From Candidatus Doudnabacteria bacterium RIFCSPHIGHO2_01_FULL_46_24 (lineage in GTDB: Bacteria > Patescibacteriota > Doudnabacteria > UBA920 > O2-02-FULL-48-8): 64,000 nt of DNA. Numbering within the stretch: the first letter of the stretch is position 1; the number at the start of each line of letters is the position of its first letter. Both the position numbers and the translations under genes were made by a program. Of the stretch, positions 2,959-60,526 are shown in pieces. The notes under the pieces were generated by a model. It was not told where the DNA came from, made no database searches, and worked only from the letters and a program-made list of their open reading frames with translations. The stretch covers positions 8,264-72,263 of the forward strand of contig MFEL01000018.1 in assembly GCA_001777575.1 (NCBI GenBank), in the 5' to 3' direction.

Positions 2959-3504
2959 ATGAGCTATCTCATCATAGGCCTTGGCAACCCGGGCAAGCAA
3001 TACAAAAACACGCGGCATAACCTCGGCTTCCGCGTATTGGATCTGCTCGCTGATGGAGAAAACTGGCAAGACAAACATGACTCGAAGTTTATCAAGCTTA
3101 ATGATATTATCCTGGCCAAACCGCAGACATTCATGAATAAATCCGGCGAGGCTGTGAAAGAAATATTGAAATATTACCCAGCCGCGGAAATGATTGTAAT
3201 TCATGATGACTTGGATTTGCCTTTTGGCTCAATTAAAGTCCAAAAAAATATATCGTCTGCAGGACATAACGGGGTACAATCAATCATTGATGAATTAGGA
3301 ACTCAAAACTTTGTTCGGGTCAGGCTAGGCATTGATATGCCTGAAGCAAGAGGGCGGATTCCTGGTGATGTCTATGTTTTACAAAATTTTTCCGGGCTAG
3401 AAGAGGAAATTATAAAACAACAACTTCTCCCGGCAGCGGTCAAAGCTATTGAGACTATCCAAACTCAAGATTTTGAAACGGCTCAGTCACGATTTAATGG
3501 ATAG
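2959..3504 (+). CDS. pth: peptidyl-tRNA hydrolase
   Basis: MSYLIIGLGNPGKQY...HNLGF signature, 181 aa. Confidence 0.92.
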   Translation: MSYLIIGLGNPGKQYKNTRHNLGFRVLDLLADGENWQDKHDSKFIKLNDIILAKPQTFMNKSGEAVKEILKYYPAAEMIVIHDDLDLPFGSIKVQKNISSAGHNGVQSIIDELGTQNFVRVRLGIDMPEARGRIPGDVYVLQNFSGLEEEIIKQQLLPAAVKAIETIQTQDFETAQSRFNG

Positions 3505-3537
3505 TTCGTATTTCGTAGAATTTCGTAGTTCGTAGAA
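3504..3537. repeat. tandem TTCGTAG-type heptamer array directly after the pth stop
   Basis: tagttcgtatttcgtagaatttcgtagttcgtag read directly. Confidence 0.6.
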
Positions 3538-3710
3538 GGACCGCTTTGCAAGAATCAGGATTCAGGGATCCTAAAAAAACTCGCCGGCGACTGCGACGAC
3601 GAGGGTTGGCCTTGCTGGGACAAGGCCATGAAAGCAGCTTGTTCGCGCGGGCGCGCGGACTATTCTGCTCTTGCCCGTGCTGGGTAACGGGCGGGGTGGG
3701 AACGGGGAAA

Positions 3711-3986
3711 TCAGTCCCCGCCGAACTCAAGGGCCAGCAGCGCAAAGCGGATATCCACTTCTTCAGGGCTCAACCCCGCGTGTTTGCAGGCCATGAGCTC
3801 TTTGAAGTAGAGGTCCAGCTCCTGCTCGGCCATGTGCAGCAGGTCGTGAATCCGACTTGCCCGCATGGCCAGCTGTTGCTGGCATCGTTCTTTGCTGCAC
3901 TGGCTACTCACGCGGCACAGAGCGCCGCGCGCGTTCACTTCCACTACATGGAGCGGAAGTGTTCGACCCAGACTACCGTGTGGCAT
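3711..3986 (-). CDS. hypothetical protein in GC-rich segment (start uncertain)
   Basis: Long minus ORF with GGAGGAG just upstream of the ATG at 3986; GC-rich DNA gives ORFs in all six frames so support is weak. Confidence 0.25.
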   Translation of the reverse strand: MPHGSLGRTLPLHVVEVNARGALCRVSSQCSKERCQQQLAMRASRIHDLLHMAEQELDLYFKELMACKHAGLSPEEVDIRFALLALEFGGD

Positions 3987-4053
3987 GGCTCCTCCGACGG
4001 CGACTGACGTTGACATGCCGCGAGCCCGCGGCAGGGTTGGCGCCAGAGCGCCC

Positions 4054-4236
4054 TTACGAATCTTCCCTCCTTTCGTGCGAGACCCGTTCTGAGGCTCGCA
4101 TAAAAACCATGGCGGCCACGGCACTTAGCCCGAGCAGTGCCGTAAAAAACGCGGCGATGCCGCCGGCCAAGCCATAGGCCACTCCAGCCAACATTACTAC
4201 GGCCAGAAGCAGCCAAACGCTTAGGCGCTTAGGCAT
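4054..4236 (-). CDS. small hydrophobic membrane protein (60 aa)
   Basis: AGGAGG 9 nt upstream of the ATG at 4236; MPKRLSVWLLLAVVMLAGVAYGLAGG hydrophobic core; the track's TTG start at 4272 is less likely. Confidence 0.45.
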   Translation of the reverse strand: MPKRLSVWLLLAVVMLAGVAYGLAGGIAAFFTALLGLSAVAAMVFMRASERVSHERREDS

Positions 4237-4453
4237 ATGGAACTTTCCTCCTTCCTCATGAGATGCGTTCAACCCTACTTACGAGCGCCAGGATCAAACG
4301 GAAAACCGTTTGGGCCTGAACTTATGGCTACTTGCACGCAATAGGAGGGATGCTGCATGCTTTCACCGCATCGCAAGTAGGATAGAAAACACCTGCTGTG
4401 CTATATTTTATAGGAAACAACATAGGATAGCAAAAATGCCAGAAAATGTCAAC

Positions 4454-4528
4454 CCCGTTAGAAACATGCTGTTTCAGGCGCTTTAAATTAAAAATTAAAC
4501 TGACATGTCGCACGAAGTTTCTAACGGG
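4454..4528. promoter_or_regulatory. inverted-repeat element copy A (CCCGTTAGAAAC ... GTTTCTAACGGG, 51-nt AT-rich spacer) spanning the dprA start
   Basis: Perfect 12-bp arms read directly; dprA ATG at 4505 lies in the spacer; related copies at 32627-32728 and 60101-60209. Confidence 0.6.
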
Positions 4529-5608
4529 ATCAATACCGAGAATAAAGTTTACGGCAATGCCCTCAATTCAATAGAAGAACTCGGGCCAGTCAGTTTGCTC
4601 AAACTGCTTAAGTTTTTCGGCAACTTCCAGAATGCCTGGCAAGCGGGCGTAACTGATCTGGCCAAAGCAGGCCTCGACCAAAAAAAGATTGATGCCATTC
4701 TAGCAAAACATCCAAGCCTGAAGCCGGAGCAATTGTGGCAGGAAACCCAAAGACTGGGCCTTGAGGCACTGCTTCTGGGAGAAAAAGATTATCCTAAACT
4801 TCTGGCCGAAATCCCCTCGCCGCCGCCGATCCTTTATGTCCGAGGAAACAAAAAGATTTTGAATGACAATCTGCTGGCGGTGGTGGGCAGCCGCAAAATG
4901 ACCGGCTACGGCCGGCGCACAGTAGAAGATCTCATTCCCCAGCTCCTAAACGCCGGCCTGGATGTGGTTTCGGGCCTGGCCTTCGGCGTAGATGCCTGCT
5001 CTTTGCAGACAACACTTTCTGCCGGCAGTGCACCCATTGCGGTACTTGCTTCCCCGCTTGACAACTCAAGCATTTCACCGAGAATCAATTACAATTTGGC
5101 CCAAAAAATCGTTCAGCAGGGTTGTATGATATCCGAATACGCTTTGGGATCTCAAGTCTACAAAACCAATTTTCCCCAGCGCAACCGGATCATTGCCGGC
5201 CTGAGCTTGGGAACGCTCGTAATTGAAGCCGACGAAAAAAGTGGCAGTCTGATTACCGCTAATTACGCGCTTGATTTCAACCGCGAGGTGTTTGCCGTTC
5301 CCGGCCCCATCTTTTCCGATGTCAGCCGCGGCACCAACGCCCTGATCAAAAAAGGAGCGGTTTTGGTGTCTTCAGCTGCGGACATTATCCAAGCGTTGAA
5401 CCTCGACGTGACCTTGCAGATGGAGCTGGATGAAAATTACCACGATGAAACCGGAATTCTGGATTTGCTTTCCGAGCCCAAACACATTGATGAGCTGATC
5501 CGGCAGCTAAAGCTGGACGCGCCCACGGTCAGCACGAACTTAACCATGCTGGAACTCAAAGGCCGGATCAAACATGTAGGCGGGGGCACTTATGCCAAGA
5601 TCCGTTAA
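4505..5608 (+). CDS. dprA: DNA processing protein DprA (Smf)
   Basis: Rossmann-like core LLAVVGSRKMTGYGRR...GLAFGVDACS, 367 aa. Confidence 0.88.
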   Translation: MSHEVSNGINTENKVYGNALNSIEELGPVSLLKLLKFFGNFQNAWQAGVTDLAKAGLDQKKIDAILAKHPSLKPEQLWQETQRLGLEALLLGEKDYPKLLAEIPSPPPILYVRGNKKILNDNLLAVVGSRKMTGYGRRTVEDLIPQLLNAGLDVVSGLAFGVDACSLQTTLSAGSAPIAVLASPLDNSSISPRINYNLAQKIVQQGCMISEYALGSQVYKTNFPQRNRIIAGLSLGTLVIEADEKSGSLITANYALDFNREVFAVPGPIFSDVSRGTNALIKKGAVLVSSAADIIQALNLDVTLQMELDENYHDETGILDLLSEPKHIDELIRQLKLDAPTVSTNLTMLELKGRIKHVGGGTYAKIR

Positions 5609-6656
5609 GCTTATTCTGCTTATTGTCGCCGCTATCCTTATTGTTATCGTCTTGCTAACAACAAAACGGGCGATAGAGCCAGGCGACTATCAACCATCAA
5701 CTATTAACTATCAACCACAAAGCGTCACCCTCTTCTTCGCCGGCGACATTATGCTCTCGCGCAACGTCCATGACCGGATGGCGAAAGCTGGTGATTTTGC
5801 GCTGCCGTTTAACCACGTGGTTAGGCAAGTGGTTTCCGCTAATCTAAGTTTTGCCAATCTGGAATCGCCGTTTAACGACCAAGGGCCGCACTTTGTGCCC
5901 AATAGTTTAGTCTTCAACGCTGACTCAAAAAGTGTCGCGGGTTTAGTCGCCGCGGGCTTTGACATCCTCTCCACGGCCAACAATCATGCTTTTGACCAGG
6001 GCCAAAGAGGCCTTGAGTTTACGCGGGACCTGCTTGAGGCTCATGACAAAGCTCATGACATCCTGGCGGTCGGAACCGGAGAGGGTTGCCATCAGGGGAA
6101 AATCATAGAAAAAAGCGGAATCAAATTCGGCTTTCTGGCCTACTCTTACGCGGCTTACAATGACGGCGGCAAACAGTCTGATCCTTTGGTCTGCAACTGG
6201 AATGATTCCGCCCAAACTGCCGAAGATATCAAACTGTTAAAAAACAAAGCCAACTTCGTGACCGTGTCTTTCCATGCCGGCACGGAATATAAGCGCCAGC
6301 CGGATGAAAAAAATGTCGCTTTAGCCCATGCCGCGACCGATGCCGGCGCCGATCTGCTCATCGGCCACCACCCCCATTGGATCCAAACCATCGAAGAATA
6401 CAAGGGCAAATATATTTTTTACTCACTCGGCAACTTTATCTTTGATCAGATGTGGAGCCAGGAGACAAGGGAAGGATTAACGATGACGATGACAATAACC
6501 ATGACCGACCAAAAACCCGAGATCAAAAAAATCGAGCTTATGCCTGTGGTTATTGACGATTACTGCTGTCCAAGATGGGCGAATTCGTCCGAAACTGCGT
6601 CGATTTTAAAAAAGATAAACTTGACAAGCAACATTTTAGTGGATAACAATGATTGA
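5592..6656 (+). CDS. CapA/PGA-biosynthesis-family metallophosphatase with N-terminal TM anchor
   Basis: FAGDIMLSRNV, GHHPHWIQ and GNFIFDQ motifs typical of the CapA family. Confidence 0.7.
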   Translation: MPRSVKLILLIVAAILIVIVLLTTKRAIEPGDYQPSTINYQPQSVTLFFAGDIMLSRNVHDRMAKAGDFALPFNHVVRQVVSANLSFANLESPFNDQGPHFVPNSLVFNADSKSVAGLVAAGFDILSTANNHAFDQGQRGLEFTRDLLEAHDKAHDILAVGTGEGCHQGKIIEKSGIKFGFLAYSYAAYNDGGKQSDPLVCNWNDSAQTAEDIKLLKNKANFVTVSFHAGTEYKRQPDEKNVALAHAATDAGADLLIGHHPHWIQTIEEYKGKYIFYSLGNFIFDQMWSQETREGLTMTMTITMTDQKPEIKKIELMPVVIDDYCCPRWANSSETASILKKINLTSNILVDNND

Positions 6657-27431: not shown

Positions 27432-30317
<2,886 letters not shown>

Positions 30318-30719: not shown

Positions 30720-32576
30720 ATGCAAAAAAGCTTAACAGATAAAATCAAAGAACTTCCCAACCAACCCGGGGTCTATATTTTCAAAGACGCCAAGGGTTTG
30801 ATTTTATATGTCGGCAAGGCGATTAACCTGCACAACCGCGTGCGGTCGTACTTTCGGGAGAGGCATCCTCCTGGCAGAGCGCCAATCTTGGAGGATGCCC
30901 CTCCACGCATCCAGCTCATGATTTCTCAAATCGCTGATCTAGATTACACAATCACGGACAATGAGCTGGAGAGCCTGCTTTTGGAAAACAACTTTATCAA
31001 GCAGCTTAAACCCAAATACAATATCTTGATGCGGGATGATAAAAATTATCTGTTCATCAAGATTAACATCAAGGACGAAATTCCCACGATCGGCTATGAC
31101 CGGAAACCAAGTGATAAGAATGCCAGATATTTCGGGCCTTATACTTCCAGCATTGCCATCAAAGACAATCTGCGTCTGGTGCGCAAAATCTTTCCTTACT
31201 GCGCCAACAAAAAAATCACAGGCAAGCCTTGTTTTTATTTCCACATCGGCAAATGCCCGGGCGTGTGCGTGGGTAAAATTTCGCTGGCAGAGTATCGCCA
31301 AAACTACATCGGAAAAATTATCCAATTTTTGCAGGGCAAGCAATTGGAAATTCTCAAAAATCTAAAACTCCAAATGCAGGGATATGCGCGGAGTAAAATG
31401 TTTGAAAAAGCCGCCAAAGTCCGCGACCAAATTTATGCGCTTAACCGGGTGTTAGAACGACAAAAACTGGTCTATCCCAAAAAAGTTGACCAGGATGTAT
31501 TCAGCATCCATGTCGAAGCATCAATCGCCTGCGTCAATTTGTTTATAATCCGCGAAGGCAAGCTGATCAGGAAAGAAAATTTTATTCTGGAAAACACCAA
31601 GGGCGCTCAAGTTGCAAAAATCCTCTCGGAATTTTTGCCTAGATATTATTTGGAGGCCACAGATTGGCCGAGGGAGATTCTGGTGCCGGCCTTGGAGGGG
31701 CATCCTCCCAGACTGGCGCGCGGCGAGGAGGATGCCCCTCCACCAAAAATTCTCGTCCCCACCCGCGGGCAGAAACTCAAGCTCATCAAACTCGGCGAAC
31801 TAAACGCCAAGCAATTCCTGGAAGCTCAATCAGACAAACATCTGTTGGAGGAGGCTCGGCTGATGAGTGCTCTGAAAGAGCTGCAACGAGTCTTAAATCT
31901 CAAAAAATTGCCTGGCCGGATCGAAGCTTACGATATCTCCAACATCCAAGGCAGGCACGCGGTAGGCTCTATGGTCGTGTTTGACTATGGACATCCGAAA
32001 AAAGAAGATTACCGGCGATTTAAGATTAAACGCCAGACCGTGTCCGCCGAAGGCTCGCCGAAGGCGGATGACTTCGCGATGATGCGGGAAGTTCTCACTA
32101 GGCGCTTTGGAAAAACAATAACTGTTAACAATAACGATAACCGCTCATGGCCGCTGCCTGACCTCATTCTCATCGACGGTGGACGCGGCCAACTCAATGC
32201 CGCCCAATCCGTAATTCGTAATTCGCAATTCGTAATTCCCGCAATTGGCCTCGCCAAGCGCCTGGAAGAAATCTTCGTTCCCGGACAATCCAAATCTTTA
32301 ATCCTACAACCGAACTCAATAGCGCTATTCTTGTTACAAAGGATCCGCGATGAGGCCCACCGCTTCGCCGTCACTTACCACCGCAAACTCCGCTCAAAAG
32401 CAGCCAAGGCTTCGGCCCTGGACCAAATTCCAGGCATCGGAAATGCAAAAAAACGAAAAATCCTGGCTTATTTCGGATCTGTGGCTAAAATCCGCCAAGC
32501 TCCCTTGGGAGAACTTGCCCAAATCGTCGGCAACGCGCTGGCCGAAAAAATCAAAGCCAGCCTGCCTGACCGGTAG
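30720..32576 (+). CDS. uvrC: excinuclease ABC subunit C
   Basis: GIY-YIG start PGVYIFKDAKGLILYVGKA, UvrBC-binding region, RNaseH-like and HhH C-terminus; real start is ATG 30720 (TATAAT 8 nt upstream), not the track start 30549. Confidence 0.92.
   Translation: MQKSLTDKIKELPNQPGVYIFKDAKGLILYVGKAINLHNRVRSYFRERHPPGRAPILEDAPPRIQLMISQIADLDYTITDNELESLLLENNFIKQLKPKYNILMRDDKNYLFIKINIKDEIPTIGYDRKPSDKNARYFGPYTSSIAIKDNLRLVRKIFPYCANKKITGKPCFYFHIGKCPGVCVGKISLAEYRQNYIGKIIQFLQGKQLEILKNLKLQMQGYARSKMFEKAAKVRDQIYALNRVLERQKLVYPKKVDQDVFSIHVEASIACVNLFIIREGKLIRKENFILENTKGAQVAKILSEFLPRYYLEATDWPREILVPALEGHPPRLARGEEDAPPPKILVPTRGQKLKLIKLGELNAKQFLEAQSDKHLLEEARLMSALKELQRVLNLKKLPGRIEAYDISNIQGRHAVGSMVVFDYGHPKKEDYRRFKIKRQTVSAEGSPKADDFAMMREVLTRRFGKTITVNNNDNRSWPLPDLILIDGGRGQLNAAQSVIRNSQFVIPAIGLAKRLEEIFVPGQSKSLILQPNSIALFLLQRIRDEAHRFAVTYHRKLRSKAAKASALDQIPGIGNAKKRKILAYFGSVAKIRQAPLGELAQIVGNALAEKIKASLPDR
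30858..30905. repeat. 48-bp palindromic element in frame in uvrC, copy 1 (encodes ERHPPGRAPILEDAPP)
   Basis: GGAGAGGCATCCTCC-tggcagagcgccaatctt-GGAGGATGCCCCTCC. Confidence 0.75.
31695..31742. repeat. 48-bp palindromic element in frame in uvrC, copy 2 (encodes EGHPPRLARGEEDAPP)
   Basis: GGAGGGGCATCCTCC-N18-GGAGGATGCCCCTCC. Confidence 0.75.
32206..32240. repeat. tandem AATCCGT/AATTCGT/AATTCGC heptamer array in frame in uvrC
   Basis: aatccgtaattcgtaattcgcaattcgtaattccc encodes SVIRNSQFVIP. Confidence 0.65.
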
Positions 32577-32626: not shown

Positions 32627-32728
32627 ATCCCGTTAGAAATTGATATAGCCAGTATTAATCGTAACGCAATATCTGACGAGGATCGAGAAATGGCAAGATA
32701 GCATAATTAACCAGTTTCTAAACGGGAT
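32627..32728. promoter_or_regulatory. inverted-repeat element copy B (ATCCCGTTAGAAAT ... GTTTCTAAACGGGAT) with right arm ending on the secG ATG
   Basis: The downstream arm reads tttctaaacgggATGaatc, so the secG start codon is within the arm. Confidence 0.6.
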
Positions 32729-43544: not shown

Positions 43545-44632
43545 TGTCATTTTCCATCGGCATTGTGGGTCTCCCCAACGTAGGCAAATCCACATTATTT
43601 AACGCACTCACGAAGCAGCAAGCCGCTGCTTCGAATTTTCCATTTACCACGATTGAGCCCAATGTCGGCGTGATTAATGTTCCAGATGAGAGACTGGCTA
43701 AACTGGCAGTACTTGAAAAATCCGAAAAAATTGTGCCAACCAGCATTGAATTCGTGGACATTGCCGGCTTGGTCAAAGGGGCGGCGGAAGGCGCGGGCTT
43801 AGGCAATAAATTCCTCTCTCATATCCGAGAAGTGGATGCCATTGTCCAGGTTGTGCGATTTTTTGAAAACAGCGACATTATCCATGTGGATGGTTCAGTC
43901 AACCCACAACGCGACATTGACGTCATCAACACGGAGTTGATGCTGGCGGATTTGGCTGCGGTTAGCAAACGGTTGGAAGGATTGCACCGAGATGTGAAAT
44001 CCGGGGACAAAGAGGCAATAGCGTTGAAAGATGCCTTGGAAAAAATCAAACAAGCTCTGGATTCAAGCCGGCCGGCCAAATCCGTGCAATTAACAGACGA
44101 ACCTTTGAGGCTGGTTAAGCAATTACAGCTTTTGACCATGAAGCCGGCGCTTTACGTGGCCAATGCCACGAACCAAGGGCCGAGCCAGGAGGGGCGCCCT
44201 CCCAGCAGAGCGCCAATCTTGGAGGGCGCCCCTCCAATCATAGCTCTCGACGTTAAGCTGGAATCAGAACTGGTGGAACTCAAGGACGAAGAACGGGCGG
44301 AATACATGAAAGAACTGGGCATCCAAGAATCAGGCTTAGACAGATTGGCAGCCGCAGCTTACAAGCTCCTGGATTTAATCACTTTTATCACGGCCGGACC
44401 GAAAGAATCCAAAGCCTGGACCATCAAGCGCGGCACCAAAGCGCCGCAGGCGGCAGGTATCATCCACACTGACTTTGAAAAAGGCTTTATCAAAGCCGAG
44501 GTCATTCAGTGGGACAAGCTTTTGGAAGCCGGCGGCTACGCGCAAGCAAGAGATAAGGGCTGGCTGCGGCTCGAAGGCAAAGAATATGTCATCACTGATG
44601 GCGACGTCTGCCATTTTAGATTTAATTTATAA
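43544..44632 (+). CDS. ychF: ribosome-binding ATPase YchF (Ola1)
   Basis: [22 protein letters not shown]-terminal domain. Confidence 0.92.
44188..44235. repeat. 48-bp palindromic element in frame in ychF (encodes [16 protein letters not shown]), variant with compensatory arm changes
   Basis: GGAGGGGCGCCCTCC-cagcagagcgccaatctt-GGAGGGCGCCCCTCC; spacer nearly identical to uvrC copy 1. Confidence 0.75.
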
Positions 44633-48336: not shown

Positions 48337-49602
48337 TTATTGCTTCATTTCGGTTATTGGGCCCAGAGGCAATCGGAGGTCATGCTCGTTGGCTGGGACG
48401 ACTTGAGCAAAGCTGTGGCCCCAGGAGAAGAAAACTTCAGCCGAGGGGAAGGCGTAGCGCAGATCCGCGCCTAGGAAATAAATAGTGCCTTTATCATTAA
48501 CCACGCTGCCTCTCGCGTGGCGCTGCGAACCGGTAAATATGCCGGAGCCCAAGGGAAGATTCTGCGTTTGCCCGAGGATGGCATTTTTTGTCTTATATCC
48601 AAATTCAGCAAACACCGGCATGGAAACAAACGGCCGCTTCTTCCCATATTCTATAACATATATCGTGCCAGAGTCCAAAACCAGAACGCCGTCAAGGTAC
48701 GCCGGGGCAGGCGCGGGGGTTGGTGTCGGCGCGGGCTGAGGCGTTGGAACAGGCACTGGGGTCGGGCTACCGCCTCCTCCGCCAGGCGGACTTGGCGAAG
48801 GAGCCGGGGCAGGTGATGGCGCAGGAACCGGTGTTGGTGTTGGTGAAGGAGTCGGGGTAGGCGCGGGACTTGGTGCCGGAGTTGGACTTGGCGCCGGACT
48901 CGGAGCAGGAACTGGTGTGGGCGCTGGAGCCGGTGTCGGAGAAGGAGAAGGCGCCGGATCTGGTGTAGGAACAGGCGCTGGAGAAGGCGCCGGACTCGGT
49001 GCTGGAGTCGGAGAAGGAGCGGGGACAGGCGCCGGAGAAGGCACGACCGCTGCCGTAACCGAAGCGTTAATAACCTCGGACAAAATATCGCTGCCCGAAA
49101 CCGCGACGTTGGAATCATTGGTTTGGCCCGGCGTAAAATCAAAACTTATCGCCCCGGCGCCTGCCTTGAGAGCCTTAAACCGAATTTCCGCCAACGTCTG
49201 GGTGGATATTCCCGTGCCGGACGCAAACAAGGAGAGCTGGACAAAACCCGCCTGATTATCGAAATGATTGGCAAAAATAGTCAGCAGCGGGTCTGCCTTG
49301 ACCTCTTTTACTTCCAGCAATTCCGGATTGAACCTTAAAGAATAGACATCTACGGCATCAGCCGCGACCGTTGTTTCCAAATTGACGTTAAGCCAGAACT
49401 CGTCATTGACCAAAACTTCCTTGCTTGCCGGACTGACGGCGAGTATGGCCTGCCCCACATCGGCGTTGCCAAAATTAAACGAGGTTTTTTTCGCCCGGTT
49501 CGAAAGATTATTCAGGGCAAAAAATGCGGCAACAAAAAATCCAGCCACCAGCATGACCGCGATTAAATTTTTGTATTTCCAAAGCAGGGGTCTCATCATC
49601 AA
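48337..49602 (-). CDS. membrane-anchored surface protein with PT-rich linker and conserved C-terminal domain
   Basis: N-terminal TM; (PSPAPVPT)n linker; C-terminal ~120 aa shared with the 1517-aa protein. Confidence 0.6.
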
Positions 49603-52556
49603 TCGCCGGTTGAATTCCAGTTTGTTCGAAGCAGGGAGTAATCCAGGCTGTTGACGATGCCGTCGCCCGTCAAGTCAGCGCCGGAATCCGCTTGGAACCA
49701 TTTCTGCGCCAATCTTGCGACGTCCAAAGCGTCTATGCGGTTGTCGTTGTTCAAATCCCCGGCTTTCAGGCTGCCAAAATCAACGGTTAACCCCGGTTCC
49801 AAATCGATCCTGACCGCGCGCGACAAGTAGCCGTCGGGTTTAATCACCGCGCGGATCGGCTGGGCCAAAAGATTTATATTCAAGGACTGCCTGCCGGTTT
49901 CAGGGGCTGACAGCTCAAATTCGCCCAGGCTGTTTCCGGATAAGTCGTAAAAAGTGATGGTCCCGGAAGCGCGATGCTGCTGCCGGCCTTGCAAAGTCAG
50001 TCTGACGGCAACCGAGTTCACGATTGGCGGCGGCGGAGGTGGAGGCGGAACAGGTGCCGGCGCTGGAGTCGGAGCCGGTGTTGGAACCGGGGACGGAGAA
50101 GGAATAGGGATGGGAACAGGCGCTGGCGAGGGTTGGGGACTGGGAACTGGCACAGGCTGTGGCGCAGGAACGGGAGCGGGAGTAGGCGTTGGTTGCGGTG
50201 TCGGCTGCGGCACGGGTGTTGGCGCGGGAATAGGAACCGGAACGGGTTGAGGTGTCGGAACCGGGAGTTGCGGAGCGTTGCCGTTAATCTGGCGGAGCGC
50301 CGCCTTGAAACTTTCATCCGGTATGAAATTTTCCGTTGCCCACGGCCAGATTTCAAAGCCAACACTGGCATCCCGGGGATTGATAGTCGGCCCCCACCAG
50401 GCAATCCCCTGTAAGCCGTTTTGCCAGGTCAGATCCGCAAAATATTGCAACTCGTCTGGGTTCGGGGAAGAATCGCCGGAGAGGACAATGCCCTGATGGA
50501 CAAACCAGGCGTCCCGTCCGGCGGCTACCTCCTTGACAATGTTCATTGAAGCAGTCATGGCGCCGGACCAGGCAGAAGTGTTGTGGTCCGGAAAGAAAAA
50601 GTAAGGATAAAAATCCATACTAAAGATGTCGGTCCAATCCCAGCCCCTGATTTTTTCCGCGCTGTCTTGAGATTCATTTTGCCAAACCAACTTGCTCGGA
50701 TAAATTTCCTTAAACAAATTATATCCTTCCTGCATACTTTGCTGATCCCAATCAGTATGACCTAAAGAAACATTTCCACTTACCTCATCAATATTATGAA
50801 TACCCAAAACCCACGGCGAATCAAAGCAAGGCCGAAGTTGATTCAAGGCCTGGCGTTTGTAATCAGCGGAATATTTTTTTTCAAAGGGAACAACAATCTG
50901 CCAAAAAAGATAAGTGTTGGCCGCCGGCGCCTCGGCGATTCTGGCTCGGCAAAACTCGTTGTAAACCTCGAGATCAAAAGCACGGGGCGTGGAATTCCAG
51001 TTGCCAAAAAGAGAGTCTACGCTGTACATCACGACTTTGGCGCCGAAATCATTCCTCAATTCTCCTAATGTTTGAGTATTGTTTCTACGAAACCACGGCC
51101 CCAGCCAAAGCACGGACATTTTTTCCGGAAGTTCATTGCGCACTTTCACGAACACCCGCTTACTGATCTGGGCCCCGCCGGGAGCCTGAGCGGTAATGTT
51201 AAACAAGGTGCTGCTCTGAACCGCCGCGCCGAAACTCGTTCTTCTGGTCACATCAATATTGCCGGGGTTGAGTGTCAGCTTGCTGTAGCCCTGGGCAGCC
51301 CAGGAAAAAGTCACGGTCTCGCCTTTAGCTATCTCTGTTCTGTCCGCAGTCAAAGATTCTATGTCCAAAGGCGGAACGCCGAATTCCGAGATCGTAACCG
51401 TCATGCCTTTCGGTAAAACCAAGCTTCGATACGAAAAATCCCCTGATCCGTCCGCGATTGCCGTAACCGCGGCACCGGTCTGCGGATTATAAAGCAGCAG
51501 GTCAGTTAGGCGGTCTGAATTGATATCAGTGGTGGACACCTGCCAGTTCGCGTCCCAGCGGCCGCGGTGATAATCAAAATCGGCCCTGGATCGGTCAAAA
51601 AGCAAGGTAAACCACGAACCGTTTTGCTTATTGTGCAAAATTAAATCAGCCGCGTTATCGGCGTTAAACTGTCCGGTTATGACAGTCCAACCGGCCGACC
51701 ATTTGCCCGAAATGGCATCAGTGGCAAACCCTTGATCCGTGGAAGTTAGCGCAAACCAATTAGAGGTATCGGACGCCGCTCCGTCCACTTCCGGATTATA
51801 AACCAAGAGATCGGAAAGTCCGTCTTGGGAAAAATCCGCGACAGTCACCTCCCAGCCCGGAGACATTTGCCCGCTTTGGCTGTAATCAAAATCGCTGCCG
51901 CCGGAATCAATGACTTTGTACCAACTGCCGGAAGCTTTGTTGTATAAAAAGAAATCCGTCAGCGAATCGCGGCTGAACCGGCCGGGAAAAATTTCCCAAC
52001 CCGGGGACCAGGCCCCTTGCTTTGGACAACTGAATTCCGACTCGCTGGTCGTAAAACATTCATACCAGGCTCCCGAGCTTTCGTTATATAAAAACAAATC
52101 GGTTTTTTGGTCGCCGTTAAGATCCTGAACATGAGATTGCCAGCCGGGGCTGAAACTGCCCCGATGATAAACAAAACCTTCGGGGGTGCCGATAACTTTG
52201 TACCAGCTGCCCTGTTCAAAACTGTAAATGTACAAATCAGCCAATCCGTCATTATTAAAATTGGCCGCCGAGACCTCCCAACCGCTGTCCCAACGACCGC
52301 TGCTGCGGCCCTGCGGCTCCGCAGATCCTGTGCCATAATTGATGAGCCAATCACCCGTTGATTTATCGTATAAAAAAATATCCAGGGCGTCTCCGAATGC
52401 CGCATTAGACGTGGTGAAGTCCACCGTGATGGCGCGCTGTCGTAAAAATTTAACCCCTAATATTGCCCCCGATCCGGCCAAAATCAAAACAATAGCGCCC
52501 AACGCCATCCGCCCTGCTGGTCCAAGTACGGCAAGCCTGCTCGATATTCTCATCAT
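49599..52556 (-). CDS. large surface protein: FG-GAP/VCBS-like repeats, TIM-barrel glycoside-hydrolase-like region, PT linker, dockerin-like C-terminus
   Basis: Repeated GxWYKV/GSWFTL blades; PVPTPQPVP... linker; C-terminal [16 protein letters not shown]...[16 protein letters not shown] dockerin-type duplicated Ca-binding segment. Confidence 0.65.
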
Positions 52557-52578
52557 ATTTTTTTTGTTTTTTTTGGGC

Positions 52579-55500
52579 TTATTGCTTCATTCCCAACACC
52601 GGGCCGATGGGCAGAGCCAAATCATGCTCGTTGGCTGGGACGACTTGAACAAAGCTGTGGCCCCAGGAGAAGAAAACTTCAGCCGAGGGGAAGGCGTAGC
52701 GCAGATCCGCGCCTAGGAAATAAATAGTGCCGTTGGACTCTACCAGCACGCCGCGGGTATGCCGGGCATCTGATGTGAACAGTCCCTCGCCCGCGGACAA
52801 AACGCTGACGTCAGCTTCGATGACGTTGCGAAGCTTAAAACCCAAGCCCGTGAATACGGCTAAGCTTGCAAACGGCCGCTTTTTGCCGAACTCAATGATG
52901 TAGATGGTGCTGTGGTCCAAAACCAGAGTCCCATCTTTCAGCGCCAAGGTATTGACCGTAACTGTGATATTTTGCGTCACTTGCTGGCCCTGGCTGTTTT
53001 GGGCAGTAAGCGTGTAAGTTGCGGTTGCCGCAGGAGAAATATCCTTAAAACCGGTTAGTACCACGGCCCCGACCCCCTGATTCAACGACACAGATGAGGC
53101 GTTGGCCGTCTGCCAGGTCAGCCTGACTGATTCGCCCTTGTTGATCGAAACGCTTGAGGCGGTAAACTGATTAATTAACGGCTGCGGCACGGAAGTGACG
53201 ACAATCGTGACATTGGCCGAAACAGAAGTTACTGAATTAATAGCTGTCAAAGTGTACGTGGCGGTTTGGCTTGGGGTAACGATAGCCGGGCTTGTACCAT
53301 TGCCGACAATAGTGCTGCCTTGCTTCAAGGTCACAGTTGTGGCATTGGACGTATTCCAAGAAAGCGTAGACGATTGCCCGCTAGTAATCGTCGCCGGAGT
53401 TGCAATAAACGAACTGATAACCGGCGCTTGCGGCTGCGGGTTCACGGTTACCGTAACTGAGCCTGTGACCGACTCGCCGGTGGATGAGGAGGCAGTCAGG
53501 ACATATGTCGAAGTTTGGGTCGGAGAGACTACCACGGATGTACCGCTGCTCGCGATATTGGTTGAACCAAGCTTCAGGACAATATTATTGGCATTGGTCG
53601 TGGTCCAGGAAATCGTGGAGTTTTGACCGGCGGTAATACTGCTTGGATTGGCACTAAGCGAAGTGATAACCGGCTGACCAACATTAACCGTAACGGTAAC
53701 GCTTGACGAAACTTCCTTACTGCCGTTGTTGGCGGTTAAGGTATAAGTCGTGGTCTGAAAGGGACTGACATTCAGGGAATTGGATGGGGCAGTCGAGATG
53801 ATGGCACTGCCGGCTTTCAAGGTCACGGTCGTGGCATTGGAGGTAGACCAGGAAAGAGTAGTACTTTGGCCAAAATTAATGCTTGCAGGCAGGGCGGCAA
53901 AGGAGCTGATGACCGGATTGCCAGGCTGAGGCGCGCTGATGCTGAAATAATTGTCGCTCAAGTCTTCCGCAATTTTGTTACCTCCGTCATAGAGGACGAC
54001 CCGGATGCGGTAATCGGCAGCCGGCGACACTTCGATCAGGCCAGTCTTGCCGCTGTCATAATAATAAGTCTGACCCCAGCCCAAACTCCAAGTGTAGGAA
54101 GCCGCGGTAACGCTCATAGGAGAAGGCACCAAAGCGCCAAGAGTGCTGCTGCCTTTCACCAGTTCAAAATCCAGTCTGGGGTTGCTTAGGCTTGAAATGT
54201 TGGTGATACCAGCAAGAATTGAGAAGGCGGTTTGGGTGCCATCCTCGGTGGCCATGACCAACTGCTCGCCGCCGTTGGGGGAAGTCAGGGTAATGCTGGG
54301 AGTCAGAACATTATTGACGGTTATGGTGTAAGATTTGTTTCCGGAGAGTGATCCGTTACTGGCGCTTAAGGCAAACGTATAGGTTCCGGCCGTAGTCGGA
54401 GTGCCGGTGATATGACAAAAACTCGTGCCCCCGGCACAATCAGTGGTCTGAAGCCCCGGAGGAAGGCTGCCGGAAAGCGTCCAGGAAAATGCGCTGGAGT
54501 ATCCAAGCGGCACAATGCCCATGATCGTTCCGGTATAATAAGTACCCACAGTGCCGTTTGACAAACTGTCTGGCGAGAAGCTGATAACTGGTATGCTCAC
54601 GGTCATGACATTGCCTGGGCCGCCGAAATTCAGAATGGTGCCGCTGGGGTGGCCTGCGGAATAAAACTGCAAAGCAAAAGTGCTGCCCGACTGGGCCGAT
54701 TGGGCCAGGTCAACCTTTATCGCCACGGTTTTGCTGGAATCAGACGGGATGACAAGGCTGAAGTTATTAAAGTCGAGGTAGCAGGTTTTATCGTAATCTA
54801 AGAAAGTCGCCGAACCCAGCACCACTCCCGAGGTGACGTCAGTCAGTGTGGCTTTGCTAAATGCGCAAAATCCCGGTGTGCCTAGGCTAGTGTTGGTGGC
54901 CGCGCCCAAACTAGTCAGGACAAAATCGCCGCCGATTGACGACAGTTTGGTGCGCAGCACTTCCACTCCTGTCATGCCCGGTTGGATGGTTTTGGCAATC
55001 GGCGTGTCCGCAGCAAGCTTAAGGTCAAGCTGAGGGTAAGCGCTGACAATGCTAAACGGCGCGTCGGATTGGTCATAATTGCCGCCGCCATATTGCTTGA
55101 CCACTTGAATATAATAATCCGATCCTGGCGGCACCGTGCTGCCATCTCCCAACGTGCCTACAGATTGCCAAGCTAGAGACGTGTCATAAACCAACGAAGA
55201 CCCAATCCAGCCGTAGGAACTGCCGTTGGCCGCAGTTAAGTGAACTGTATATGCATCTCCGGTTTTATAATTCGAATCCTCCCAGTCAATCATCGCCGCT
55301 GACCCCTTGGTCCAAATCTCGCCGCCGTTTGGCGAGATGATTCGGATTGCCGCTGGCGGCGAGGTCAGGACAGATAATCTAAAATCACGATATGCTATTT
55401 GCGAACCGGATTTGACCTGGACGGTAAAGTTATAATTTCCAGTCGCGGTCGGCGTGCCGGCCAAAACCAGTTGGGTCTGGCAATAAAAATCATCATAGCC

Positions 55501-57132
55501 TAACCCCGAAGGGCACGCCGGATACCAGCCCAAGCCCGGCGGCAGACTGCCGCTTGTGATATTCCATTCATAATAGTAGGCGCCGCCGGTGGCTGCGATG
55601 CTGGCAGAATAAGGCGTGTTGGTGTAAGCCAGGGGCATACTTTGAGTGTAAATCTCCAGCTGAGGAACTTCGAGAATGAATATGCTCGCCGGCAGGAAAA
55701 TCCGCTGTCGCCCGCTTTCCAAGGTCAAAGTGAAGTAGAATGAGCCGGCCTGGGTGGGCTTGCCGTAAAACACGGCCGGTAATTGGTCACATTTGATGCC
55801 GGCGACCAGGTAGCAGTCGATTGAGCGCACAGCCGATGACGGGATGCTTAAATTGGCTGATGACTTTTCGCCCAGCTGCTCAAACACCGGGCAAGGCCAC
55901 TGGATACACTGGACCTGTTCATTGGCCAGATAAATTCCCGGCGGCAACTGGCCTTTGATTCCCCAGCGGTAACTTCCTGAGCCGCCGCGGGCAAACACGG
56001 CGCCTAAATACTGTTCGCCCTCATACCCTAACGGCACATAAATATCCGTGAATTCCAAATTTTCTTCCTGAATCGGAATGACCTTGACGTCCAGGCTTTG
56101 GGAAATCGGCTTTTTATCAGAGGCAAAAACCGTGAGCATAAATAAGCCGGATTCTTCCGGCGCGTACCCAACCAAGCCGGAGCCGGATTCCGTAGCATAA
56201 ATAATCTCAACCGCCGGGTCAGCTTTTTTTTGATAAGACAATTCCGAAGCCGAACCGTTGGATGACCACTTGAAGCCAACTTCATCGCCTTGGCTGATTT
56301 CCCTGGCCGTGGCCGTAAATGAATATATTTGCAATTTGTCTTCTGTCCGCAAAAAATCCGCGGTGCCGCAAAAGACGTTTTGATAAACGTCATTGCTTAA
56401 ATAAACATGGACATTGATCGGGCCGATGCCGGGATGCTTGGCTAAATCCAATTTCGCGAACCAGCCCTGCTCTTTTTCGCCGCGTTGGCCCTGGTACCAG
56501 ACAATGTCATCCTGGCCGTTCTCGGAAGACCAGGTTGGGAAAAAAACAGAAGTCGCGTCTGTGACCCCGTTGGCATAGACCAAAAACTCGCCGGAGGTCT
56601 TGGAAGTTTCCGGAGCTTCGGGTGAGGTGTTTAAGCATGACGGCCACACTGCAGGCGGCGGGCAGCTGCTGGTGTCCAAAAATTGTCGATTAGTAAATAA
56701 AGTATTGCTGCCCGTGGCCGTGTCCTGGGCATAAACCCAGATCTCGTGCGTGGCCCCGTCCTTGAGGTCATCGGGAATTCTGAAGCTAAAGCCGTGCTGT
56801 TCGCTGGCCGGCCTACCCATAAATTCATTGACATCCGGCCGCGCCATGGCCGTGACATCCGCGGCAATCAGGCGACCGATGCCTTCCGGCCCGTCGGCAA
56901 ACACGGCCACGCGCACGGCAGCTTCGGGCGTGTCAGTATCCAAAACCCAACCACTGATCGAGTCACAAGTGGCCAGCTCAAAATTGCCCTCAACGCCATT
57001 GGCCCCGCTGCTCGCTGAGCCGAAATTAAAATCTACAATCCCCTTTTGATCCAAAACGTAAACCAAGCCAACCACATTGGCCATAATCGATATGGCAAAC
57101 CCCATTGCCATAACTTTGGCAAATTTATCCAT
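52579..57132 (-). CDS. giant surface protein (1517 aa) with tandem ~80-aa Ig-like repeats and the shared C-terminal domain
   Basis: N-terminal TM; at least 4 near-identical repeats (PVISSF...[15 protein letters not shown]...YTLTA); C-terminus about 80% identical to the 421-aa protein. Confidence 0.65.
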
Positions 57133-59592: not shown

Positions 59593-60102
59593 TTAATCCA
59601 CCCTTTCCGGCCCCTTGTCATAATAGGCCTCGATAAATTTAATCATAGCCAGTTCGTCAAACTGCGCAAAGGTCTGTAGACGCGTCCAGGCGCAAAAGGC
59701 AATCGGCGCTTCGTTGGTCTCTCTTGGCTCAATAATCACCTTGCGATACCGTTTGGTAAAATCTTGAAGCTTGTCAATCGTAGTTTGATCGACTGTCCCC
59801 GGCTTATAAGAAATCCAAATCCCGCCGTGCTCCAAGTTATGGATCAGCTGCTCGTCAGGTAGTGTCGATGAATACACGCCCCAAGCTGCCGGCTGCGGCC
59901 AGTGCCAACCCGAGGTCGGCGGGTTGGAATTATAGGCCGGATGATCGGTGGAGCCTTCAGTCAAATGCTCATTGCCCTGGTTTTCAAATGTCTGCCCAGG
60001 TAAATTCTCAGGCGCCTGCGCCTGCTTGGAAGCTTGGAACAACCAGAATCCGATGCCCAGAACTATAACAATGACGATAACGATAATAATAATATTTTTC
60101 AT
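59593..60102 (-). CDS. DUF3105-family membrane-anchored protein
   Basis: N-terminal TM and HNLEHG motif. Confidence 0.55.
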   Translation of the reverse strand: MKNIIIIVIVIVIVLGIGFWLFQASKQAQAPENLPGQTFENQGNEHLTEGSTDHPAYNSNPPTSGWHWPQPAAWGVYSSTLPDEQLIHNLEHGGIWISYKPGTVDQTTIDKLQDFTKRYRKVIIEPRETNEAPIAFCAWTRLQTFAQFDELAMIKFIEAYYDKGPERVD

Positions 60103-60209
60103 CCCGTTAGAAATAGTGATAGTTAATTAATAAGCTATTTTTATTATAATCATCTCGTTTTAGTATAATTTTGGCCATAAACTCAACTACGTAAAATTTC
60201 TAACGGGAT
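60101..60209. promoter_or_regulatory. inverted-repeat element copy C (ATCCCGTTAGAAAT ... ATTTCTAACGGGAT) whose left arm covers the DUF3105 start codon
   Basis: Minus-strand reading atttctaacgggATGaaaaat; 14-bp perfect arms, 81-nt AT-rich spacer. Confidence 0.6.
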
Positions 60210-60227
60210 TCATAGCTTGGGTATTAT

Positions 60228-60259
60228 AAACTATCAACTATCAACTATCAACTATTGAC
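60228..60259. repeat. tandem (CAACTAT)x4 heptamer array immediately upstream of, and overlapping, the -35 of a promoter
   Basis: aaactatcaactatcaactatcaactattgac. Confidence 0.65.
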
Positions 60260-60283
60260 TCGAAGAATCCGAAAGGCTATAAT
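60255..60283 (+). promoter_or_regulatory. consensus promoter TTGACT-17-TATAAT ending 7 nt before the ATG (leaderless-type transcript)
   Basis: Read directly. Confidence 0.55.
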
Positions 60284-60289
60284 TTTTTT

Positions 60290-60484
60290 ATGAGCGAACC
60301 GATTACGAAACAAGAACTAGTCAAAACTTTGGGCGAGTTTACGGAAGAAACCCTGCTGCCGGCTCTTTCTGCCATGATGGATGAAAAATTCAAAAATTTC
60401 AGTCTCAAAAGAGATCTTAAACAAGTCATTTCCGAAACCGACGCCAAGCAAATTCTCTCGCTGGAACCGTTCCCAAAATCATAA
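60290..60484 (+). CDS. small hypothetical protein
   Basis: 64 aa downstream of a consensus promoter; terminator follows. Confidence 0.35.
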   Translation: MSEPITKQELVKTLGEFTEETLLPALSAMMDEKFKNFSLKRDLKQVISETDAKQILSLEPFPKS

Positions 60485-60492
60485 AAATAAAA

Positions 60493-60526
60493 TAAAAAAA
60501 CCGCCTGGCATCTCCAGGCGGTTTTT
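60493..60526. terminator. bidirectional rho-independent terminator
   Basis: A7-CCGCCTGG-catct-CCAGGCGG-T5. Confidence 0.6.

Follow-up and report, generated by a model that had tools for sequence, protein, structure and literature searches.

The perfect inverted repeat at the start of the DUF3105 gene, in the 64,000-nucleotide stretch of a Candidatus Doudnabacteria metagenome-assembled genome (MAG) from the Rifle aquifer analysed here (the window), very probably represents the 13-bp terminal repeats of a miniature, non-coding and non-autonomous mobile element of about 107 bp that resembles MITEs (transposable elements of miniature size with inverted repeats). An earlier note on this DNA had described perfect 14-bp arms at 60101-60114 (ATCCCGTTAGAAAT) and 60196-60209 (ATTTCTAACGGGAT), and both are found at exactly these positions, separated by an 81-nt gap; perfect inverted repeats of at least 14 nt with gaps of 10-120 nt occur on average 0.075 times per simulated 64 kb (first-order Markov model, same dinucleotide make-up). 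The minus-strand reading of the left arm (...atttctaacgggATGaaaaat) is also, as the note had it, the gene start, leading directly into the ATG at 60102 to 60100, which opens an open reading frame (ORF) of 169 aa that matches Pfam DUF3105 and is covered by its homologues over 100% of its length. The repeat recurs within the window, where the 11-mer TTTCTAACGGG has five exact occurrences versus 1.31 expected even with one mismatch permitted. Together with one bulged variant, these occurrences form three outward-facing pairs, referred to here as copies A, B and C (3 copies per 64 kb, or about one element per 21 kb), of which copy C is the DUF3105 repeat.

Evidence for insertion comes from orthologous DUF3105 loci of other Doudnabacteria in which the order folD-TrxR-TrxR-DUF3105-GDH-cupredoxin is conserved. 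Upstream of DUF3105, locus L144 is empty and reads gctataatttttaagctt ATGAAAacc, loci L142 and L143 are likewise empty, and the layout of the empty sites is TATAAT-N10-ATGAAA. Locus L141 is filled (gctataattcttgagctt ATGAAT/CCCGTTAGAAAC...TTTCTAAACGGG/ATGAAAgtc, or in condensed form gctataattcttgagcttATGAAT/element/ATGAAAgtc, with slashes marking the element boundaries), as is the window (tttataatacccaagct ATGAAT/CCCGTTAGAAAT...ATTTCTAACGGG/ATGAAAaat). A second, independent empty/filled pair is found at a class-I tRNA synthetase gene, upstream of which L144 (TATAATACTCTC/ATGAAAGAA) and the window are empty and L141 is filled twice (TATAATACCTTC ATGAAT/E/ATGAAT/E/ATGAAAGAA, where E denotes an element). 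These comparisons show that the copy C element inserted at the 4-nt target TGAA in the first codons of DUF3105, that the target was duplicated and the ATG rebuilt, and that the DUF3105 start lay 6-10 nt past its -10 box before the insertion. The precise empty-site junction predicted for copy C is ...CCCAAGCT-ATGAAAAATATT, and the predicted circular or hairpin junction is TTTCTAACGGG-A-TTCA-T-CCCGTTAGAAA. The filled state is patchy on the GDH tree (the GDH of L141 has identities of 0.80 and 0.78 to those of the empty L142 and L143, respectively, and 0.74 to that of the window), and therefore points to either repeated insertion at one target or clean loss.

The same loci bear on the first interpretation given in the earlier note, that of a start-codon-sequestering hairpin, taken here as a riboregulator or thermosensor-like leader that evolved in place. 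The 14-bp stem does include the AU of the AUG in the predicted minimum free energy (MFE) fold, the best promoter precedes both arms and copy B is arranged alike at secG; however, the orthologues of the DUF3105 and tRNA synthetase genes are wholly without the structure, target duplications are present in the flanks, and the same arms occur in a coding region (copy A) and beside unrelated genes in other phyla. The spacers, moreover, are unconserved, and neither the window nor 12 loci gave an Rfam match at the gathering threshold (at E ≤ 10 the copy C region returned chance-level hits only, far under gathering scores, with none of E < 2 overlapping the element). An origin in place is very unlikely on this evidence, and from the claim of a conserved start-site hairpin the predicted stem can be retained, whereas its conservation as a regulatory structure cannot.

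The family was traced by a scan of bacterial contigs (one genome per species) with the pattern CCCGTTAGAAA-N53-83-TTTCTAACGGG, which returned at least 120 matches (more than 120 exact matches among those listed, compared with about 2 by chance on a rough estimate). The best model comprises ends of the form Y-CCCGTTAG...CTAACGGG-R and a 4-bp target duplication that is usually T-N-N-A. An 8-bp arm core (CCCGTTAG/CTAACGGG) is invariant across the family, and the four positions inward of this core vary among elements (AAA, AAG, AGA, AGT, AGG, ATA, ACC) and agree between the arms of a given element in 100/94/94/76% of unselected cases, respectively, with positions further in at chance level. Just outside the core, each element ends in one more covarying pair, a left-hand pyrimidine and a right-hand purine that are complementary in 93% of cases, and all copies have matched 13-bp ends made up of the invariant core and the covarying flanking pairs. 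Elements recovered with the 8-nt core are 24-280 nt in length and contain no ORF.

The register of the duplication is well defined, with a direct-repeat signal of 0.68 at a single register versus about 0.27 at all others in 122 elements, and per-position identities of 0.48/0.81/0.76/0.75/0.84/0.43 for the six bases outside each core. Duplications of 2 bp or 6 bp fit these statistics more poorly than 4 bp with a terminal Y/R; a recombinase overlap of 6 bp in which the outer positions are mismatched may instead account for them. In tandem arrays the same tetranucleotide is found three times (GTTCAT/E/ATTCAT/E/GTTCAT in L014; GCTCAT/E/ACTCAT/E/ACTCAT in L083); a triple array is present in L152 and a nested copy in L040. 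Furthermore, in 6 genes with a terminal G and the target ATGAA, the gene-side copy reads GTGAA and the promoter-side copy still reads ATGAA, and these ATG-to-GTG rebuilt starts fit the model of duplication plus terminal purine. The stem in the earlier note measured 14 bp rather than 13 because the duplication at copy C starts with T and ends with A. As a separate observation, tandem arrays of 2-3 elements of about 100 nt are found in L152 (reverse complement, 5565-5860), L163 (5628-5854) and L141 (19407-19614), with units spaced by exactly ATTCAT and situated between a TATAAT box and the gene ATG; the distal arm of the third L152 unit is absent.

These features also discriminate against the second interpretation in the earlier note, a palindromic operator, taken here as two sites that a transcription factor binds while the DNA loops over the divergent promoter region. 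Two identical half-sites do surround AT-rich, promoter-like DNA and the motif is found at three loci, but the arms can be as little as 5 nt or more than 250 nt apart, a misfit with a dimeric operator, both strong promoters lie outside the pair, and the adjoining genes are unrelated. In addition, the arms are distributed across phyla with target duplications and in tandem arrays, and covariation between them would be unexpected for a fixed protein-binding motif. Such an operator is hardly credible as an explanation of copy C, and the recurring TTTCTAACGGG-ATG unit, which is correctly described as common to copies B and C, is instead accounted for by the terminal repeat followed by the (A)TGAA duplication.

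Table 1. Positions in the window of the copy C element and its surroundings, and of copies A and B.
Feature	Position	Strand	Details and basis
Copy C element, 107 bp	60102..60208	strandless	Ends as set by a 4-bp duplication, with T at 60102 and A at 60208 as terminal bases; TTCA direct repeats on either side; insertion delimited by the empty (L144) and filled (L141) orthologous sites
Left terminal inverted repeat TCCCGTTAGAAAT	60102..60114		Gene-proximal "extended" end, continuing as AGTGATAGTTAATTAATAA to ~60133
Right terminal inverted repeat ATTTCTAACGGGA	60196..60208		
Left copy of the target-site duplication, TTCA (TGAA when read along the gene)	60098..60101		Register-specific repeat in 122 elements; L144 empty site ATGAAA
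Target-site duplication, right copy, TTCA	60209..60212		
DUF3105 start codon	60100..60102	minus	A is the element's terminal base pair, TG is duplicated target
Upstream duplicate ATG (60213-60211) with 8-codon ORF	60187..60213	minus	ATG AAT CCC GTT AGA AAT TTT ACG TAG (MNPVRNFT*)
Degenerate inner third arm CTCGTTTTAGTA	60154..60165		Subfamily consensus CCCGTTAAGTA; alignment of subfamily copies
Internal TATAAT	60145..60150	plus	Points away from DUF3105; kept in most of ~28 subfamily copies
Probable original DUF3105 promoter, TTGATA-17-TATAAT	60223..60251	minus	11/12 consensus; ends 9 nt before the duplicate ATG
Partner promoter, TTGACT-17-TATAAT	60255-60283	plus	11/12 consensus; right of the element, back to back with the minus-strand promoter
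Copy A arms	4454-4464 / 4518-4528		At dprA
Copy A element, 77 bp	4453..4529		Flanks TCAA (4449-4452, 4530-4533)
Copy B arms	32629-32639 / 32715-32726		Right arm with one extra A
Copy B element, 100 bp	32628..32727		Between uvrC stop and secG ATG (32727)

Copy C is a member of a Doudnabacteria subfamily of about 100 nt, and the L157 sequence is identical to it. Alignment of window copies B and C with three copies from L141 gives a common order that opens with the extended end, CCCG(T)TTAGAAATARTGATTAGTTAATAA, and continues through an AT-rich part with a conserved TATAAT, the inner third arm and a variable part to the short end TTTCTAACGGG. A metagenome scan by the extended end recovered 23 stretches with about 28 copies, all of 65-105 nt and several sharing a contig, and no long or autonomous version of the subfamily. 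In 15 of the 15 informative unique copies an ORF of 65 aa or more has its ATG right at the extended end, and a duplicate ATGAAT stands on the opposite flank, in several copies with a TATAAT 6-10 nt upstream of this duplicate; the orientation relative to the gene is the same in about 27 of 28 copies. The subfamily sits at gene start codons in a fixed orientation, and members of the family as a whole precede essential genes (secG, a tRNA synthetase gene, rpsB, prfA and nusG). The association with start codons extends across phyla, since 42 of 107 elements abut, at offset 0, the start codon of an ORF that is 80 aa or longer, compared with 19 of 2140 random positions, and RTGAR opens a long ORF at 76% of arm-adjacent sites versus 22% of all RTGAR sites. 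Orientation is also associated with the purine or pyrimidine richness of the target centre (17/3 versus 3/9, odds ratio 17, p = 0.0017), as judged by a marker, inner-arm polarity, that is intrinsic to the element and noisy.

A uniform orientation is not what would be expected of an invertible promoter switch, in which a promoter-bearing segment between inverted repeats is flipped by a site-specific invertase. The 81 bp enclosed by the copy C repeats do carry TATAAT-like boxes on either strand, and the same repeat is found at several loci, as it is in the Mpi-type systems of Bacteroides. However, a single orientation is seen in about 17 assemblies as well as in nearly all subfamily copies, the segment is very short for synapsis, and no invertase or recombinase was found nearby by Pfam analysis of the window ORFs; the probability of such a switch is close to negligible.

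Copy A illustrates an insertion within a coding region. Excision of this element together with one TCAA recovers AGGA-N8-ATG CCA GAA AAT GTC AAT ACC GAG AAT AAA..., in frame with DprA, and copy A therefore landed in dprA codons 5-6; the DprA Pfam domain begins at residue 82. The ancestral ATG (4436-4438), with an AGGA Shine-Dalgarno sequence 8 nt upstream, has been severed from the gene and today begins an ORF of 16 codons, whereas the present, annotated DprA ORF starts at an ATG (4505) within copy A, the element supplying the new start and 8 codons. Gene callers consequently report a chimeric DprA N-terminus (MSHEVSNG...), because the start falls inside the element. Beside copy A, about 900 nt of GC-rich DNA (3500-4450) contain only overlapping, implausible ORFs, with no tRNA, no tmRNA and no Rfam match at E ≤ 1; this stretch may represent a decayed gene or else a structured RNA that has yet to be described.

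Copy B has the subfamily architecture, with an extended gene-proximal end carrying a 1-nt bulge (TTTCTAAACGGG) at the secG ATG. A C-to-T change in its left arm is present in one strain assembly (L134). A hammerhead-like CTGACGAG...GAAA in its spacer was judged to be a coincidence, as stem II and an Rfam match are both absent.

Several observations weigh against the interpretation of copy C and its relatives as mobile elements. Neither the window, nor 1.25 Mb of related loci, nor the metagenome scan yielded a transposase or recombinase that has matching ends, and the mechanism of movement is for this reason inferred only. No strain-level empty site was found for copy B or C in about 17 assemblies, all of which are filled with unchanged copies, and current activity is therefore unsupported in this population. 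The flanks of copy B (ATTCAT/ATGAAT) are mutual reverse complements rather than the direct repeat found for about 75% of the family, which may reflect rearrangement between copies or insertion into a palindrome, TTCA/TGAA. The central target dinucleotide is self-complementary in only 6% of cases, and this feature and the strict orientation are both atypical of DDE transposition. Also relevant is the combination of intact arms and diverged interiors, which is compatible with host-level selection too. Finally, the approximately 120 loci were chosen by exact arms, which makes arm conservation among them circular, and independently found copies were used for the covariation, empty-site and subfamily analyses.

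The searches for a mobilising enzyme covered only the loci and hits, so that a negative result here means that no transposase is encoded nearby. When 950 ORFs from 120 loci were clustered all against all, no family proved recurrent, none extending to more than 5 loci; the ORFs interior to solo arms encode ordinary enzymes, and Pfam analysis identified only housekeeping genes among 20 ORFs from element-dense loci and no transposase or recombinase among 30 window ORFs and the precomputed Pfam lists. A phmmer search with the ISEcp1 transposase, which is a weak test for remote homologues, returned nothing at E ≤ 1 in the 1.25 Mb of loci. An enzyme encoded elsewhere in the genome would recognise the ends, either as a paired hairpin or as matched ends. 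A first candidate would be a piggyBac/IS1380-like DDE transposase, on account of the CCC tips, the 4-bp TNNA duplication and the seamless loss, and a second would be a hairpin-specific single-strand DNA transposase or recombinase; the covariation of the arms, the elements of only 24-27 nt and the strict orientation suggest hairpin recognition or a directional recombination joint.

At DUF3105, the insertion would have produced a promoter and leader arrangement of the following kind. The minus-strand promoter in Table 1 is the probable original DUF3105 promoter, of the leaderless or near-leaderless type, because its TATAAT-N6-10-ATG layout recurs at the empty sites of relatives. It is the only strong DUF3105 promoter predicted and precedes both arms, which are therefore expected in one leader. 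The MFE fold predicted for this leader contains the 14-bp stem (-28.9 kcal/mol, z = -3.55), and the 8-codon upstream ORF, as read from the sequence, passes through the promoter-proximal arm. A transcript from the displaced promoter would thus begin with this leaderless upstream ORF, run into the 5' arm and then form the stem, the 3' arm of which would end in the AU of the true AUG and so damp DUF3105 initiation. Relief could come from a ribosome on the upstream ORF melting the stem, or from RNA 5' ends generated within the element by transcription or processing. The arrangement must allow expression, because the same family precedes essential genes. The mRNA hairpin, which may well form, would be a consequence of the insertion.

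On the plus strand, the partner promoter is followed at leaderless-type spacing by a 64-aa ORF (60290-60484), with a strong bidirectional terminator at 60496-60526. No Pfam family matches this ORF, and four related Doudnabacteria lack it in their TrxR-DUF3105 gap, which there measures 25-105 nt versus about 545 nt in the window.

The predicted leader also raises the question of host benefit. We regard it as possible, though doubtful, that the element transposed in and is now a host-selected 5' cassette, with internal promoter, upstream ORF and hairpin, that tunes leaderless genes, its ends being conserved for an RNA or DNA function rather than for continued mobility. Such a cassette would agree with arms that are intact and covarying around diverged interiors, with copies that are fixed and invariant across strains, with the location of every informative subfamily copy at an ATG in one orientation, with the conservation of the internal TATAAT and inner arm in the subfamily, with tolerance ahead of the essential genes and with the significant leader fold. 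The same ends, however, also occur within dprA, on -35 boxes, where tRNAs have their 5' ends and, in other phyla, at non-start targets such as GTTTAC, the tandem duplicates (three in L152) look selfish rather than tuned, and position and orientation may reflect purifying selection alone, since only those copies that spare expression survive.

The mobile family to which copy C is assigned has a wide host range. According to the taxon labels of the MAG records, its hosts include many lineages of the candidate phyla radiation (CPR)/Patescibacteria, Planctomycetota, Deltaproteobacteria/Desulfobacterota, Omnitrophota, Nitrospirota, KSB1 and others. Copies from CPR mostly have a terminal A and spacers of 31% GC, compared with a terminal G in 12 of 13 deltaproteobacterial copies and spacers of 48% GC, and because the lineages carry different subfamilies, mis-binned contigs do not account for the spread across phyla. 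Spacers are mostly unrelated, with identical multiple copies within one genome (e.g. DX4.bin27). Targets other than start codons are found in other phyla (e.g. GTTTAC), as are -35 boxes. As an observation in its own right, tRNA 5' ends are hit, on the end or within a few nucleotides, in L099 (5090-5189), L016 (1916-2019), L044 (4621-4697) and L106 (3471-3558); in L099 the CGGG of the arm constitutes nucleotides 1-4 of tRNA-Pro and the other flank is a near-duplicate of the first 9 nt of the tRNA, and in L016 the arm provides nucleotides 1-2 of tRNA-Leu.

An abutted full site of the attP type, as might be carried by a phage or plasmid, was absent from viral contigs, which gave only 3 paired matches. 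Searches of the literature with the exact arm sequences returned only primers and shRNAs, and nothing resembling the family was found in the literature on MITEs and CPR or in a 2024 review of prokaryotic MITEs. The cross-phylum family is thus large and apparently undescribed. Its novelty would lie, as far as sequence comparison can show, in the 8-bp core kept across phyla with covarying flanks, in the targeting of start codons with reconstruction of the codon, and in a mobilising enzyme that was not found in the searches.

The closest functional analogues of the family are the Correia elements and REPINs, neither of which has these ends, this duplication or this host range. Correia elements (CREE/NEMIS) of Neisseria are co-transcribed, form mRNA hairpins, create or carry promoters and alter the expression of neighbouring genes, and they share with the present family a non-coding length of about 100-150 bp, terminal inverted repeats, a short target duplication and insertion near gene starts (PMC2649163). 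They are, however, restricted to a single genus and have 26-bp repeats, a TA duplication and binding of IHF and RNase III, in contrast to the 13-bp conserved end, 4-bp TNNA-like duplication, occurrence in several phyla and interiors unconserved between subfamilies seen here, where the start codon itself is targeted and rebuilt.

In REPINs, each REP is an imperfect palindrome and the whole REPIN pairs near-perfectly. REP sequences carry a 5' GTAG. REPINs (REP-BIMEs, mobilised by the Y1 HUH transposase RAYT) resemble the present elements in having two short inverted repeats, an unconserved spacer, a hairpin and a non-autonomous nature, as well as in lacking an adjacent transposase, persisting for long periods and preserving the complementarity of their ends (PMC3337134, PMC3116915). 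Assignment to the REPIN/RAYT system was rejected, as the arm CCCGTTAGAAA is not palindromic, pairing ends after 13 bp and a target duplication is present. The only RAYT-like sequence seen was a degraded Y1 transposase fragment in a Desulfovibrionales MAG (L018, 97-522) with REPs of its own (GTAG-GGTGGGC...GCCCACC), which are unrelated to the CTAACGGG arms located 2 kb away.

The relation to IS1380/piggyBac is weakly inferred and amounts to a resemblance. PiggyBac elements excise seamlessly, a mechanism that would fit the clean empty sites. The likeness further comprises CCC...GGG tips, a 4-bp TNNA duplication and asymmetric sub-terminal repeats, and the piggyBac duplication is mostly TTAA, with TCAA, TAAA and GTAA variants (PMC10813416). 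Here, in contrast, the CCC is offset by one covarying base from the duplication and the central dinucleotide is almost never palindromic, unlike that of TTAA; the ISEcp1 end CCTAGATTCTACGT is only a loose match to the family ends.

Integron attC sites share with the family short conserved boxes at the hairpin base, a variable centre and length, and a frequent single bulged base at one end, and the boxes TTCTAAC/GTTAGAA resemble RYYYAAC/GTTRRRY of attC. This candidate was rejected because the box order is reversed (GTT...AAC here, AAC...GTT in attC), the duplications place the joint outside the boxes and not at G/TT, and cassette ORFs, integrase and array context are absent. Elements of the IS200/IS605 type lack a target duplication, insert 3' of a fixed tetra- or pentanucleotide and have asymmetric sub-terminal hairpins; one element end here does carry a small sub-terminal hairpin, but the two-sided duplication and symmetric terminal repeats do not fit this type. 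Rickettsia palindromic elements (RPEs) are likewise small palindromic mobile DNA that survives in or at the edges of coding regions with the frame kept open. RPEs insert in frame within genes and are genus-restricted, whereas the main targets here are the first codons or the 5' edge of genes.

Two further features of the window are separate from copy C and its relatives. A second, unrelated family of GC-rich palindromes (15928, 29554-29610, 30890, 31693-31745 and 44188-44236), with arms GGAGGGGC(A/G)(T/C)CCTCC ... GGAGG(A/G)(T/C)GCCCCTCC, looks like RPE-like in-frame palindromic insertions; of the copies compared with genes, two lie in frame within uvrC (encoding ..EGHPPRLARGEEDAPP.. and ..RHPPGRAPILEDAPP..) and another within ychF. 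Three very large or unannotated minus-strand ORFs of 421, 985 and 1517 aa (48337-57132), with FG-GAP, dockerin, GBS_Bsp-like and He_PIG repeats, break the cupredoxin/EF-P synteny kept in related Doudnabacteria, and this region is probably a lineage-specific surface-protein island.

With regard to its wider significance, the 8-bp core common to elements of CPR, Planctomycetota, Desulfobacterota, Omnitrophota and Nitrospirota points to a widespread mobilising enzyme. More speculatively, the elements might constitute an undescribed cross-phylum superfamily in which a 13-bp paired stem (the CCCGTTAG core with covarying pairs) is read by an enzyme class new to MITEs, possibly on single-stranded DNA at transcription starts, and in which the CPR elements would be portable 5' leaders that rebuild the start codon and bring an upstream ORF, a hairpin and a promoter with them. 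Action on single-stranded DNA at transcription starts would explain why insertion is directional and falls exactly on the +1/ATG of genes that are leaderless, or on the 5' ends of tRNAs, as well as the asymmetric 4-nt joint and the elements of 24-27 nt, which would be hard to synapse as a duplex. An enzyme that reads the hairpin and the 4-nt joint directionally could be a compact new tool for DNA insertion.

For the organisms themselves, targeting of the start codon with reconstruction of the ATG (or GTG) represents an unusual route to the tolerance of transposons; the insertions also create upstream ORFs, 5' hairpins and, in the case of dprA, new N-termini, and start miscalls by annotation pipelines are to be expected at the insertion sites. 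The elements are, in addition, easy markers for tracking strains and rearrangements in uncultivated lineages. The genomes of CPR/Patescibacteria are considered to be streamlined and poor in mobile DNA, an expectation that contrasts with the density observed here on the start codons of housekeeping genes.

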